A DNA stretch of 64,000 nt from Escherichia coli (GTDB taxonomy: Bacteria > Pseudomonadota > Gammaproteobacteria > Enterobacterales > Enterobacteriaceae), in the NCBI RefSeq assembly GCF_017348835.2, contig NZ_CP071375.1. One strand, given 5' to 3'. The first letter of the stretch is position 1. Every line of letters begins with the position of its first letter. Under the pieces are notes generated by a model. The model did no database searches, had not been told where the DNA came from, and saw only the letters and a program-made list of their open reading frames with translations. The translations under genes and the position numbers were made by a program. This document shows, piece after piece, positions 12,950 through 16,880 of the stretch.

Positions 12950-14302
12950 ATGACTAAACACTATGATTACATCGCCATCGGCGGCGGCAGCGGCGGTATC
13001 GCCTCCATCAACCGCGCGGCTATGTACGGCCAGAAATGCGCGCTGATTGAAGCCAAAGAGCTGGGCGGCACCTGCGTGAATGTTGGCTGCGTGCCGAAAA
13101 AAGTGATGTGGCACGCGGCGCAAATCCGTGAAGCGATCCATATGTACGGCCCGGATTATGGTTTTGATACCACTATCAATAAATTCAACTGGGAAACGTT
13201 GATCGCCAGCCGTACCGCCTATATCGACCGTATTCATACTTCCTATGAAAACGTGCTCGGTAAAAATAACGTTGATGTAATCAAAGGCTTTGCCCGCTTC
13301 GTTGATGCCAAAACGCTGGAGGTAAACGGCGAAACCATCACGGCCGATCATATTCTGATCGCCACAGGCGGTCGCCCGAGCCACCCGGATATTCCGGGCG
13401 TGGAATACGGTATTGATTCCGATGGTTTCTTTGCCCTTCCTGCTTTGCCAGAGCGCGTGGCGGTTGTTGGTGCGGGTTACATCGCCGTTGAACTGGCGGG
13501 CGTGATTAACGGCCTCGGCGCGAAAACGCATCTGTTTGTGCGTAAACATGCGCCGCTGCGCAGCTTCGACCCGATGATCTCTGAAACGCTGGTCGAAGTG
13601 ATGAACGCCGAAGGCCCGCAGTTGCACACCAACGCCATCCCGAAAGCGGTAGTGAAAAATGCCGATGGTAGCCTGACGCTGGAGCTGGAAGATGGTCGCG
13701 GTGAAACGGTGGATTGCCTGATTTGGGCGATTGGTCGCGAGCCTGCCAATGACAACATCAACCTCGAAGCCGCTGGCGTTAAAACCAACGAAAAAGGCTA
13801 TATCGTCGTCGATAAATATCAAAACACCAACGTTGAAGGTATTTACGCAGTGGGTGATAACACGGGTGCAGTGGAACTGACACCGGTAGCAGTTGCAGCG
13901 GGTCGCCGTCTCTCTGAACGCCTGTTTAATAACAAGCCGGATGAGCATCTGGATTACAGCAACATTCCGACCGTGGTCTTCAGCCATCCGCCGATTGGTA
14001 CTGTTGGTTTAACGGAACCGCAGGCGCGCGAGCAGTACGGCGACGATCAGGTGAAAGTGTATAAATCCTCTTTCACCGCGATGTATACCGCCGTCACCAC
14101 TCACCGCCAGCCGTGCCGCATGAAGCTGGTATGCGTTGGACCGGAAGAGAAGATTGTCGGTATTCACGGCATTGGCTTTGGTATGGACGAAATGTTGCAG
14201 GGCTTCGCGGTGGCGCTGAAGATGGGTGCAACCAAAAAAGACTTCGACAATACCGTCGCCATTCACCCAACGGCGGCAGAAGAGTTCGTGACAATGCGTT
14301 AA
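12950..14302 (+). CDS. gor: glutathione reductase
   Basis: A 450-aa ORF with the FAD motif IGGGSGG and the redox-active disulfide [13 protein letters not shown]. Recognised as Gor. Confidence 0.97.
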
Positions 14303-14355: not shown

Positions 14356-14439
14356 TCAGTTCAGAAGCTGAAGCAGAAAGCGGATCAGTTCCAGCAGCGC
14401 AATTAACGCCCCAAGAACGATGATTGCTTTATCAATCAC
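14356..14439 (-). CDS. dinQ: DinQ, SOS-inducible 27-aa single-TM toxic peptide (type I toxin)
   Basis: It is too short for the ORF track. Reverse-strand translation from GTG (complement of 14437-14439) gives (M)IDKAIIVLGALIALLELIRFLLQLLN*, which I recognise as DinQ. A LexA box lies upstream and the agr repeats lie nearby. Confidence 0.85.
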   Translation of the reverse strand: MIDKAIIVLGALIALLELIRFLLQLLN

Positions 14440-14632
14440 CCGTTTTCTCCATGCGATGGAGTGAGAATGCATCCGCTTACTCATCCACTGCCTGTCACGG
14501 CGCATGTCTCATTGTTAGATAAGAACTCTCTCACTCCGGCCAGAGCATCAGTTAACGGCACCACCCGTACTTCTGACCAGGACTTTGAAAGCGTTTATGC
14601 GCATTACCAGAGTGAAAATGCCTCAGAGCTAA

Positions 14633-14648
14633 CTGGATAATCATACAG
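14633..14648. promoter_or_regulatory. LexA (SOS) box of the dinQ promoter
   Basis: CTGGATAATCATACAG fits CTG-N10-CAG. The 20-mer AACTGGATAATCATACAGTA matches the consensus TACTGTATATATATACAGTA at about 15 of 20 positions. A TATGAT -10-like hexamer on the minus strand overlaps it. Confidence 0.75.
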
Positions 14649-14677
14649 TACATTCAGGTTATAAAACCAGCATGTCC

Positions 14678-15773
14678 TGTGTAAGTTCACAGAGATATTG
14701 CAATTGCCTCCGGATAAGTAAGGGGAGATTGCACTATGCAAATGCAGCATCTGATGGTTGGCTATCCTAAGTACTACCAAACGGCCGATTATGCGTTGAG
14801 GCTTTCAGTGATGGCTGATATAGCAACAATGAGAATGAAGGCTCTGCACTTCTGGGATAAACACGGTATTTCTGCAGCTTCTGAAGCCTTTGGCGTGTCC
14901 TGCCGCACGCTTTACTGGTGGCGTCAGTTACTGAACAAGGAAGGACCTGAGGGGCTAATCCCGCACAGTAAGGCACCTCTGGTGCGACGAAAAAAACACT
15001 GGCATCCCGATGTGCTGAAAGAGATTCGACGCCTCAGGACAGAGCTGCCGAACCTCGGTAAAGAGCAGATTTTTGTTCGCCTGAAGCCCTGGTGCGAACA
15101 GCGCTATCTGGCCTGTCCGAGTGTTTCCACCATCGGCAGAATGATCGCTGCCGCACATGATAAAATGCGGATGATACCTGTGCGTCTGGGATCGCGGGGG
15201 AAGGCACTGCTTGTCAAAAAGCGGTCTGCCAAACCCCGCAGGCCAAAGCACTACCGCCCGGTAAAGACAGGTGAGCTCATTGGGATGGACGCCATTGAGC
15301 TCAGAATGGGCGAACTGCGTCGCTATGTCATCACCATGATCGACGAATGCAGCAATTACGCGCTGGCGCTGGCTGTGCCGTCACTCAACAGTGATATCGT
15401 CAATCACTTCTTCAGCCGCGCAGCCCGGTTGTTCCCGGTCGGTATCAGCCAGATAATCACAGATAACGGAAAAGAGTTCCTGGGAAACTTCGACAAAACG
15501 CTGCAGGAAGCCGCTATCAAACACCTCTGGACCTATCCCTACACGCCAAAAATGAACGCTATCTGTGAACGTTTTAACCGGACGTTAAGAGAGCAGTTTA
15601 TTGAATTTAATGAGATTTTACTCTTTGAAGATCTGGCGCTATTTAACCAGAAGCTGGCGGAATATCTGGTGCTGTATAACAGCAAAAGACCCCACAAGGC
15701 GCTCGCACTAATGACGCCCGTGGAATATATTTTAAAAGAGAATAAAAATTGCAATATGTGGTGGACCCATACA
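14678..15773 (+). mobile_element. insertion sequence with single-ORF IS481-like architecture (about 1.1 kb)
   Basis: It has imperfect terminal inverted repeats. The left end is TGTGTAAGTTCACAGAGATATTGCAATT, and the right end reverse-complemented is TGTATGGGTCCACCACATATTGCAATT. The termini are TGT...ACA. A flanking direct repeat TGTCC lies at 14673-14677 and 15774-15778. The element contains one DDE transposase ORF. The exact ends are uncertain by 2-3 nt. Confidence 0.75.
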
Positions 15774-15818
15774 TGTCCTTGCAATAGTTTCAGTATGGTA
15801 TTAGCATTGATGCGTTAG
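14736..15818 (+). CDS. DDE (rve/integrase-core) transposase with N-terminal HTH
   Basis: A 360-aa ORF with AAGGGGA 9 nt upstream of the ATG and an HTH-like segment FGVSCRTLYWWRQ. The catalytic triad candidates are GMDAIE, ITDNGKEF and, 35 residues later, CERFNRTLRE. The ORF runs through the right IR and stops 45 nt outside the element. Confidence 0.85.
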   Translation: MQMQHLMVGYPKYYQTADYALRLSVMADIATMRMKALHFWDKHGISAASEAFGVSCRTLYWWRQLLNKEGPEGLIPHSKAPLVRRKKHWHPDVLKEIRRLRTELPNLGKEQIFVRLKPWCEQRYLACPSVSTIGRMIAAAHDKMRMIPVRLGSRGKALLVKKRSAKPRRPKHYRPVKTGELIGMDAIELRMGELRRYVITMIDECSNYALALAVPSLNSDIVNHFFSRAARLFPVGISQIITDNGKEFLGNFDKTLQEAAIKHLWTYPYTPKMNAICERFNRTLREQFIEFNEILLFEDLALFNQKLAEYLVLYNSKRPHKALALMTPVEYILKENKNCNMWWTHTCPCNSFSMVLALMR

Positions 15819-15897
15819 ATGATGGCATTCTCACTCCAGCCAGAGCCACCAACTCTGGGCTGCAAAGTAAAAAACCGACGCAAAGTCGGTTTTTTTA
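15814..15897 (+). ncRNA. agrA: AgrA small RNA (dinQ-related repeat, weak antisense match)
   Basis: The promoter has TTGCAA (15779-15784), a 17-nt spacer and TAGCAT (15802-15807). The body begins GTTAGATGATGGCATTCTCACTCCAGCCAGAGC and ends in the terminator AAAAACCGACGCAAAGTCGGTTTTTTT. It is a paralogue of the agrB copy. The ends are estimated. Confidence 0.7.
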
Positions 15898-16044
15898 CAT
15901 CCGGATTCGGACAAGGCTTAATATGACGATGACCCAGTGAAAGTATATAAATCGTCACTGCGATATATACCGAAGTGCCCCCTCCGCCAGCTGAAGAAAT
16001 CGCTAATTCTTGCAATGTTAGCCACTGGCTAATAGTATTGAGCT

Positions 16045-16127
16045 GTTAGATAAGAGCTCTCTCACTCCAGCCAGAGCCACCAACTCAGGGCTGGAAAGTA
16101 AAAAACCGACGCAAAGTCGGTTTTTTT
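16045..16127 (+). ncRNA. agrB: AgrB small RNA (trans-antisense antitoxin of dinQ)
   Basis: The promoter has TTGCAA (16010-16015), a 17-nt spacer and TAGTAT (16033-16038). Positions 16045-16077 match the dinQ-region copy 14514-14546 at 31 of 33 positions, making it complementary to the minus-strand dinQ mRNA. It has the same terminator as agrA. The ends are estimated. Confidence 0.75.
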
Positions 16128-16200
16128 ACGTCCTGATTCAGACCTCCTTTCAAATGAATAGCCAACTCAAAATTCACACCTATTACCTTCCTCTGCACCT

Positions 16201-16241
16201 ACGCATTCGTTAAACCATATATGTTTTTGACTTATCCGCTT
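16201..16241 (+). promoter_or_regulatory. remnant of the ars promoter with the ArsR operator (-35 retained, downstream part deleted)
   Basis: ACGCATTCGTTAAACCATATATGTTTTTGACTTATCCGCTT closely resembles the ars operator and promoter as I recall it from R773 and chromosomal ars operons (..CATTCGTTAAGTCATATATGTTTTTGACTTATCCGCTT..). The similarity stops at about 16241. Confidence 0.6.
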
Positions 16242-16292
16242 TGGTTTGTAACGCTGGCTGCGCTGGCGCTACGTCTCTCTTTCACTTTGTAA
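16242..16292 (+). pseudogene. arsB: arsB 3'-terminal remnant (last 16 codons plus stop)
   Basis: TGG TTT GTA ACG CTG GCT GCG CTG GCG CTA CGT CTC TCT TTC ACT TTG TAA encodes WFVTLAALALRLSFTL*, a hydrophobic C-terminus ending 12 nt before the arsC ATG, as arsB does in intact operons. No arsR or arsB body is present upstream. Confidence 0.6.
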
Positions 16293-16304
16293 TGAGATAC
16301 TGAT

Positions 16305-16730
16305 ATGAGCAACATTACCATTTATCACAACCCAGCCTGCGGCACATCGCGTAATACGCTGGAGATGATCCGCAACAGCGGTACAGAACCGACCATTATC
16401 CATTATCTGGAAACACCACCAACGCGCGATGAACTGGTAAAACTCATTGCCGATATGGGGATTACCGTACGCGCGCTGCTGCGTAAAAACGTCGAGCCGT
16501 ATGAGGAACTGGGCCTTGCGGAAGATAAATTTACTGACGAGCGGTTAATCGACTTTATGCTTCAGCACCCGATTCTGATTAACCGTCCGATTGTGGTGAC
16601 GCCGCTGGGAACTCGCCTATGCCGCCCCTCGGAAGTGGTGCTGGAAATTCTGCCAGATGCGCAAAAAGGCGCGTTCTCCAAGGAAGATGGCGAGAAAGTG
16701 GTTGATGAAGCGGGTAAGCGGTTGAAATAA
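16305..16730 (+). CDS. arsC: arsenate reductase (glutaredoxin-coupled ArsC family)
   Basis: A 141-aa ORF, MSNITIYHNPACGTSRNTLEMIRNSG..., with the catalytic Cys12 context HNPACGTSRN. Recognised as E. coli ArsC. Confidence 0.95.
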   Translation: MSNITIYHNPACGTSRNTLEMIRNSGTEPTIIHYLETPPTRDELVKLIADMGITVRALLRKNVEPYEELGLAEDKFTDERLIDFMLQHPILINRPIVVTPLGTRLCRPSEVVLEILPDAQKGAFSKEDGEKVVDEAGKRLK

Positions 16731-16779
16731 AGCGGCTATATCCCCCCCACAGGTTGTTAGAAAAGTGCGCTTTATTTAT

Positions 16780-16880
16780 GTCGGATGCGACGCTGGCGCG
16801 TCTTATCCGACCTACAAGGTTATGAAAATTCGATGAATTGTATGTTATTTGTAGGCCTGACAGGCGTAGCGCATCAGGCG
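16780..16880. repeat. REP/BIME element
   Basis: GTCGGATGCGACGCTGGCGCGTCTTATCCGACCTAC and GTAGGCCTGACAGGCGTAGCGCATCAGGCG are inverted REP units downstream of arsC. Confidence 0.9.

Follow-up and report, generated by a model that had tools for sequence, protein, structure and literature searches.

An IS481-family insertion sequence between dinQ and agrA of Escherichia coli and the promoter-like layout of its target sites

The window analysed here is a stretch of 64,000 nt from Escherichia coli (contig NZ_CP071375.1), identical to strain PE164 over the 2-kb segment compared. Judged by its sequence, positions 14678-15773 of the window (+ strand, 1,096 bp) are an insertion sequence (IS) of the IS481 family, i.e. 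a distinct relative of ISKpn28 that is common in E. coli. This copy occupies the intergenic region between dinQ and agrA and very probably sits at the usual target of the element, with its right end 5 bp upstream of a hexamer TTG(A/C)NN that forms part of a promoter layout. Across the copies compared, the target rule is strong and one-sided, acts at a fixed distance and goes together with the layout of a sigma-70 promoter. The element, its family and its routine annotation are known already. The target rule and the stop codon that the transposase gene borrows from the flanking DNA seem to be new, as we found neither described in the open-access literature, nor any description there of promoter or -35 targeting by the IS481 family or of the window element at dinQ or hok.

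Target sites of the element

The first three other copies examined carry differing 5-bp duplications, each followed at once by TTGnnn, as is that of the window copy. The four junctions, given as duplication and then hexamer, read:

E2348/69 copy: GCTGT, then TTGAAT
Copy beside hokA: CTGTG, then TTGATT
Plasmid copy: CTGAG, then TTGCCA
Window copy: TGTCC, then TTGCAA

A scan with the right-end 24-mer or 18-mer yielded 120 metagenome-contig, 41 viral-contig and 7 species-representative-genome loci, to which E. coli loci were added; removal of duplicate right flanks and clustering at 60 % identity left 58 non-homologous clusters. Most of these sites were supplied by the metagenome and viral scans, and all of them are survivors in natural genomes. 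TTG was found exactly at +6 to +8 from the tip in 27 of the 58 right-flank clusters (expected 1.7 %, p ~1e-32), while a scan of the first 54 clusters gave at most five for every other TTG offset. Moreover, 17 of the 27 TTG sites continue with TAnnnT at a spacer of 16-18 nt, 13 of them at 17 nt, compared with a background of 7 % defined by the non-ORF (open reading frame) TTG sites of the window (p ~1e-13). The layout is kept when sok-like and agr-like homologues are collapsed (13/23 families, p ~8e-10). TTG is present in 15 of 16 unique simple insertions whose 5-bp duplication is intact, and the window's own element type shows it at 13 of 14 distinct sites, the exception reading TTTACT-17-TATAAT.

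The landmark always lies on the side of the right end, so that the transposase gene points in the same direction as the promoter. A symmetric target CAA-N5-TTG was considered and rejected, since the mirror CAA to the left of the duplication was present in none of 11 simple insertions. At the fourth position of the hexamer, C is as frequent as A. The element thus shows a fixed distance to a landmark, a fixed orientation and independent insertions at one site, as do site-directed insertion sequences.

Besides the agrA promoter of the window, the targets comprise an agr-like small RNA (sRNA) promoter, STnc100, the regions upstream of manA and of a MarR-family gene, and hok loci, i.e. hokA, hokD, a hok near cysH and plasmid hok genes. 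We infer that the rightward promoters at the hok loci are those of sok because of the known antisense organisation of hok/sok, not from an Rfam 'sok' match; the matches to this model (RF01794) lie on the hok-mRNA strand (L005 2591-2735 and L034 9788-9958), and the model may be built hok-sense. At the hok loci the duplication, TCTCC or CCTCC, is complementary to the Shine-Dalgarno sequence of hok, and the insertion separates hok from its leader. Even an insertion inside an adhesin gene still reads ATCTC, then TTGACT-17-TAACAT.

The same layout recurs beyond this element type. Sok-like sites harbour elements of the E. coli type and of the ISKpn28 type, two types with 75 % identity. Relatives in metagenome-assembled genomes (MAGs) of Ca. 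Spongiihabitans (L007, L008, L009 and L012) share only ~66-76 % identity with the window element in their 3' portions; of six copies, five have exactly its right-terminal 24 nt and the sixth has one mismatch there. The L007 copy has a 5-bp duplication, AAGGT. A further sequence, from an unclassified gammaproteobacterial MAG (L013), matches the last 29 nt only. Most of these copies adjoin a promoter-like TTGnnn-17-TAnnnT. A 566-bp contig labelled Streptomyces malaysiensis (L010) combines an ISKpn28-type right end with an enterobacterial sok-like flank and is probably assembly contamination.

Within E. coli, matches to the element occur in 1,419 of 5,426 complete genomes, on chromosomes as well as plasmids and at 1,927 places in all, and 146 records have a best match of 99 % identity or more. 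Some strains show recent expansions, e.g. IAL7255 with 37-38 copies. The dinQ/agrA site is occupied in only seven of the 5,426 genomes. The right junction and its flank are 96-100 % identical in all seven, and the ars and agr contexts vary between them. IS copies are identical in five of six genomes compared at the agrA site, and two other copies differ by 1-2 positions. Both copies of the duplication read CGTCC in IAL7255, as against TGTCC in the window and four other genomes, which mirrors a C/T polymorphism of the empty sites. Therefore, at least two insertions have occurred at the same base pair of the agrA site. The homologous position in the paralogous dinQ-like/agr-like locus of E2348/69 (Rfam AgrB, 53.6 bits) is occupied as well.

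Some copies depart from this picture of simple insertions. In the dinQ/agrA copy of E. coli Z1323CEC0015 (L180), ~5 nt are deleted at the left junction and 4 nt at the right one, and the transposase gene is frameshifted; this copy is decayed and probably immobile. In several others (L046, L069, L093, L150 and L175), the left flank belongs to one known site, e.g. hokA or hokD, the right flank belongs to a different promoter site and a matching duplication is missing, a pattern that suggests recombination between copies of the element.

The element and its transposase gene without a stop codon

The features of the element in the window are as follows:

14673-14677, no strand: left copy of the target-site duplication, TGTCC; CGTCC on both sides of the same site in IAL7255 fixes its length at 5 bp
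14678-14705, + strand: left inverted repeat, TGTGTAAGTTCACAGAGATATTGCAATT, including the palindrome ATTGCAAT
14736-15818, + strand: transposase ORF, 360 aa, the sole long ORF of the element
15747-15773, + strand: right inverted repeat, ending in AATTGCAATATGTGGTGGACCCATACA, which also codes for the conserved C-terminus of the transposase
15774-15778, no strand: right copy of the target-site duplication, TGTCC, read from the sequence

The element opens with TGTGTAAG and closes with CCCATACA. Aligned by hand, the left end and the reverse complement of the right end match in 21 of 28 columns with one 1-nt gap, so that the 1,096-bp element with TGT...ACA ends, imperfect inverted repeats and a TGTCC duplication, which an earlier note on this DNA had described, is confirmed. 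Within the repeats lies a perfect 11-nt core, ATATTGCAATT / AATTGCAATAT, at 14695-14705 and 15747-15757. Both repeats also contain TTGCAA and, ~20 bp inward from the tips, the palindrome ATTGCAAT. By-eye inspection for an outward or junction promoter revealed no convincing -10 at 16-18 nt from the TTGCAA of the repeat on either side. According to ISfinder, members of the IS481 family measure ~1-1.3 kb and have imperfect terminal repeats starting with TGT and short direct repeats; the element agrees in its size, its TGT start, its imperfect inverted repeats and its short direct repeats.

The transposase also bears features of this family. It is encoded by a single ORF with no programmed frameshift and has an N-terminal helix-turn-helix (HTH) region, both of which are IS481-family traits. 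The Pfam domains HTH_28, HTH_32 and HTH_23 are followed by rve and rve_3, and the catalytic residues are D185, D243 and E278 (D-58-D-35-E), in keeping with the single 360-codon HTH plus DDE frame noted earlier. The best NCBIfam model is transpos_IS481 with 221.4 bits (E 1.7e-65), i.e. 2.6 bits below its curated cut-off of 224 but far above the next model, IS3, at 98 bits. RefSeq names the identical protein WP_001178364.1 an IS481 family transposase, in agreement with the IS481-like identity proposed earlier.

By ISfinder convention, isoforms share more than ~95 % nucleotide identity. ISKpn28, an IS481-family element of K. pneumoniae plasmids and chromosomes, is 75.4 % identical to the window element over the full length and was therefore rejected as the same IS or an isoform. 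The likeness to ISKpn28 is otherwise close: it also has 1,096 bp, a 5-bp duplication and an ORF running out of its right end, differs at the left tip by one position in the first 31 nt, is identical at the right tip and has copies at hok/sok sites. ISKpn28 and the sponge-symbiont relatives (~67 % identity) share the last 24 nt of the right repeat with the window element. The internal repeat ATATTGCAATT / AATTGCAATAT is likewise quoted for ISKpn28 (PMC6101004). ISErsp1, the sole IS481-family match in one E. coli paper, showed no link to the window element and was set aside.

The transposase gene has no stop codon of its own. In the window, 346 codons (ending in NMWWTHT) lie within the element, and the last 14 (CPCNSFSMVLALMR) and the stop lie in flanking DNA. 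In 100 %-identical copies elsewhere, the ORF codes for 348, 356, 357, 362 or 360 aa, with every end outside the right tip; the annotated ORF ends 9, 33, 36 or 51 nt past the tip or is flagged 'missing C-terminus'. The 90 %-identity protein cluster has 2,164 members, and the full-length ones among those listed measure 348, 354, 355, 357, 360, 368, 370 or 372 aa. These varied ends of identical copies bear out the claim that the frame has no stop within the element and terminates at TAG 15816-15818 in agrA; a stop within the inverted repeat, looked for as counter-evidence, was found in no copy.

The target rule accounts for the varying tails. The right tip is read in the frame ACA-NNN-NNT-TGN, in which a TTGA hexamer, e.g. 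the consensus TTGACA, provides a TGA two codons beyond the tip and yields a 348-aa protein, and this is the commonest tail length. The TTGC hexamer of the window codes for Cys instead, and the ORF goes on for 14 codons up to the first bases of agrA. RefSeq labels copies with no nearby stop (L014, L188 and others) as pseudogenes ('incomplete; missing C-terminus'), though the element looks intact. Considering that the ORF lacks a stop of its own and that its C-terminus differs from site to site, intact copies are often flagged in this way, and the label 'missing C-terminus' is in practice an annotation artefact of a stop-less IS. If the ends were joined via a 5-bp spacer, as in an IS3-like circle (14678-14685 with 15771-15773), the frame would read ACA-NNN-NNT-GTG-TAA and stop at the TAA of the left repeat. 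Such a circular intermediate would be the only form in which the element had a defined stop.

Possible mechanism and alternative explanations

In the mechanism that we propose, the N-terminal HTH of the transposase presumably reads ATTGCAAT ~20 bp inside both ends and would also recognise a similar motif, the TTG(C/A) hexamer, to one side of the target. Direct reading of the hexamer is suggested because both repeats carry ATTGCAAT and half of the targets are TTGC. Promoters might be preferred if polymerase-bound, or intrinsically bent or unwound, promoter DNA were the better substrate. We regard it as an evenly balanced question whether promoter DNA, or RNA polymerase bound to the promoter, adds to the targeting; the argument for such a contribution is that the -10 enrichment is too strong for a motif alone combined with neutral survivorship and is seen even at the in-gene site. 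The broader proposal, for which we would claim a little less than even chances, is that an IS481 clade made up of the window element, ISKpn28 and the sponge-symbiont relatives seeks sigma-70 promoters, through either the -35/-10 layout or polymerase-bound DNA, inserts 5 bp upstream in one orientation and takes its stop from TTGA. If true, this would explain the recurrence at antitoxin sRNA promoters, i.e. the presumed sok promoters and agrA.

Several observations weigh against the target rule or its link to promoters. TTG at +6 to +8 is missing in about half of the right-flank clusters; many of these have no duplication and look rearranged, and some may be true off-rule insertions. A simple promoter scan made no call for the agrA promoter (8/12 matches). 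TTGC is as frequent as TTGA among the targets and, judged by the composition of a typical -35 box, resembles the element's own repeat motif more than a -35. Occupation of the agrB promoter, predicted because it has the same hexamers as agrA (AATTC, then TTGCAA-17-TAGTAT), was found in none of the 5,426 E. coli genomes. Hence, either more than hexamer and spacing decides whether a site is used, or selection purges such insertions. Selection and target choice are inseparable in sites that are survivors of natural genomes. In addition, ISKpn28 insertions have been reported inside mgrB and hlyA (PMC6101004, PMC7841143).

Part of this would fit a transposase that reads N5-TTG(A/C) only, with the link to promoters arising from the persistence of harmless insertions, an explanation that we consider possible, though somewhat improbable. 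The TTGCAA in both inverted repeats would agree with such short-motif targeting, the intragenic ISKpn28 copies were found under selection, and K. pneumoniae ISKpn28 sites are 59 % (distinct) to 81 % (all) intergenic, as a selection filter would leave them (PMC5343135). However, other intergenic positions ought to be equally harmless, and a reading of TTG alone leaves unexplained why TAnnnT follows at 16-18 nt in 17 of 27 TTG sites, compared with 7 % of non-ORF TTG sites, why the in-gene site shows the same layout and why it recurs in a distant host.

Two further explanations concern the dinQ/agrA site itself. An adaptive insertion, selected for altered dinQ/agrA expression through the loss of upstream sequence or read-through into agrA, might be suspected from the occupation of this site in seven genomes of differing background by at least two events, from the many other copies at type I toxin-antitoxin loci and from the overlap of the transposase ORF with the agrA promoter. 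We consider it quite unlikely: offset and orientation are the same at unrelated promoters (manA, the MarR-family gene, STnc100 and the in-gene site), the core regulatory elements and agrB are all intact, deletion of agrA gives no phenotype under UV or in growth (PMC3567139), and just seven of 5,426 genomes have the insertion. As a position 5 bp upstream of TTG is the generic target at many unrelated promoters, the insertion needs no selection on dinQ regulation to be explained. Even further from probable, in our judgement, is a single ancestral insertion at dinQ/agrA that spread by homologous recombination with no hot spot being involved. Recombination of flanking DNA is common in E. coli, and the near-identity of the IS copies at this site would agree with it. 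Against this, the two duplications, which match the polymorphism of the empty sites, need at least two insertions, and the paralogous agr-like locus of E2348/69 is occupied at the homologous position. Targeting of the promoter-like landmark thus remains our preferred reading of the window copy.

The founders of the family, IS481 and IS1002 of Bordetella, have a single-ORF DDE transposase related to OrfB of the IS3 family, TGT...ACA ends, short duplications and effects on neighbouring genes. For IS481, a palindromic 6-bp target, NCTAGN, is on record; in contrast, the target of the window element is one-sided, lies outside the duplication and has a promoter layout. Recurrent ties of insertion sequences to chromosomal hok/sok loci are not new either, as IS150 and IS186 reportedly lie beside the hok loci of E. 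coli K-12, downstream of hok (Pedersen and Gerdes are said to have described this in 1999). Unlike these, elements of the window type occupy the Shine-Dalgarno sequence of hok, with the presumed -35 of sok 5 bp downstream, and the rule extends beyond hok loci.

Closer in principle are ISAjo2/IS1202-family elements, which land at dif/pdif sites, 5 bp away on the XerC side (PMC10132070). They share with the window element the oriented insertion, the fixed 5 bp to a short protein-binding site and a harmless landing place, but use a transposase of another family, and their landmark is a recombinase binding site rather than a -35 or promoter. Insertion sequences that target repetitive extragenic palindromic (REP) sequences (PMC1525189; ISPpu9, PMC12288879) resemble it in the non-random use of a recurrent intergenic landmark; they differ in that their targets are palindromic repeats, some belong to non-DDE families and none has a promoter layout.

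If the rule holds in transposition, promoters would join dif sites, REPs and attTn7 among the landmarks of site-directed bacterial elements, and the element would be a natural scaffold for promoter-directed insertion tools. The rule would also give a mechanistic reason for the build-up at type I toxin-antitoxin loci, with different outcomes: at hok loci the toxin gene is cut off from its leader, and at dinQ the system is left intact.

The dinQ-agrA-agrB locus

Around the insertion, the window contains the following features:

12950-14302: gor, upstream of dinQ, from the ORF list
14356-14439, - strand: intact dinQ coding sequence for the 27-aa DinQ toxin, after the RefSeq annotation WP_001295215.1 at the identical PE164 locus
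14633-14648, no strand: CTG-N10-CAG, the core of the LexA operator at the dinQ promoter; 29 nt lie between it and the left end of the element
15779-15807, + strand: agrA promoter, directly after the right TGTCC, with -35 TTGCAA (15779-15784), a 17-nt spacer and -10 TAGCAT (15802-15807)
15815-15898, + strand: agrA sRNA (Rfam AgrB RF02891, 100.3 bits), with the transposase stop TAG 15816-15818 within its first bases
16010-16038, + strand: intact agrB promoter, TTGCAA-17-TAGTAT
16046-16129, + strand: intact agrB sRNA (Rfam AgrB, 108.1 bits)

With dinQ, a LexA operator, two AgrB sRNAs, gor upstream and arsC downstream, this is a dinQ-agrAB type I toxin-antitoxin locus. A 49-aa ORF (14356-14505) encloses the dinQ coding sequence, and the agrA sRNA ends in a hairpin (15869-15879/15885-15895) plus a T run. 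A simple terminator scan made no call for the agrA or agrB terminators, and our agr features rest on the Rfam matches, the hairpin and published work (PMC3567139). That work reports a consensus-like -10/-35 and a mapped start for agrA, and two LexA operators that overlap the dinQ -10/-35. Apart from the operator core listed above, CAGGTTATAAAACCAG at 14655-14670 is a possible weaker second LexA operator, which would end a few bases from the insertion.

The position between divergent dinQ and agrA, with the LexA box 29 nt from the left end and the -35 TTGCAA 5 nt from the right end, is as previously noted, and the suggested check against empty sites agrees with it. A 400-nt query that joins the two flanks without the element matches uninterrupted in 4,593 of the 5,426 complete genomes of E. 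coli; strain CP8-3 is a direct example of the empty site and reads ...AACCAGCACGTCCTTGCAATAG.

The insertion leaves the dinQ coding sequence, the strong LexA box, the -35/-10 of agrA and the whole of agrB untouched. The transposase ORF overlaps the agrA -35, the -10 and the first bases of agrA, and it may fairly be expected from this structure that transposase mRNA and ribosomes read through the agrA promoter. The main product here would then be a transposase mRNA that runs through agrA to its terminator hairpin. According to Weel-Sneve et al. 2013 (PMC3567139), DinQ toxicity is countered by agrB only, and agrA seems to be degenerate and without function. As neither the core elements nor agrB are damaged and agrA reportedly is degenerate, the effect on the toxin/antitoxin balance is probably small and the insertion probably near-neutral, at a hot spot.

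Further downstream, the window lacks, relative to CP8-3, ~1.69 kb covering arsR and most of arsB (L002 3842-5527), the difference lying around 16241-16305, so that arsC (16305-16730) follows agrB nearly directly. Of the other genomes in which the IS occupies agrA, some have kept arsRB and some have not. Just downstream of arsC, naRNA4 matches weakly and in part (16779-16811; 31 bits, gathering score 59.5), which probably reflects a REP-like repeat.

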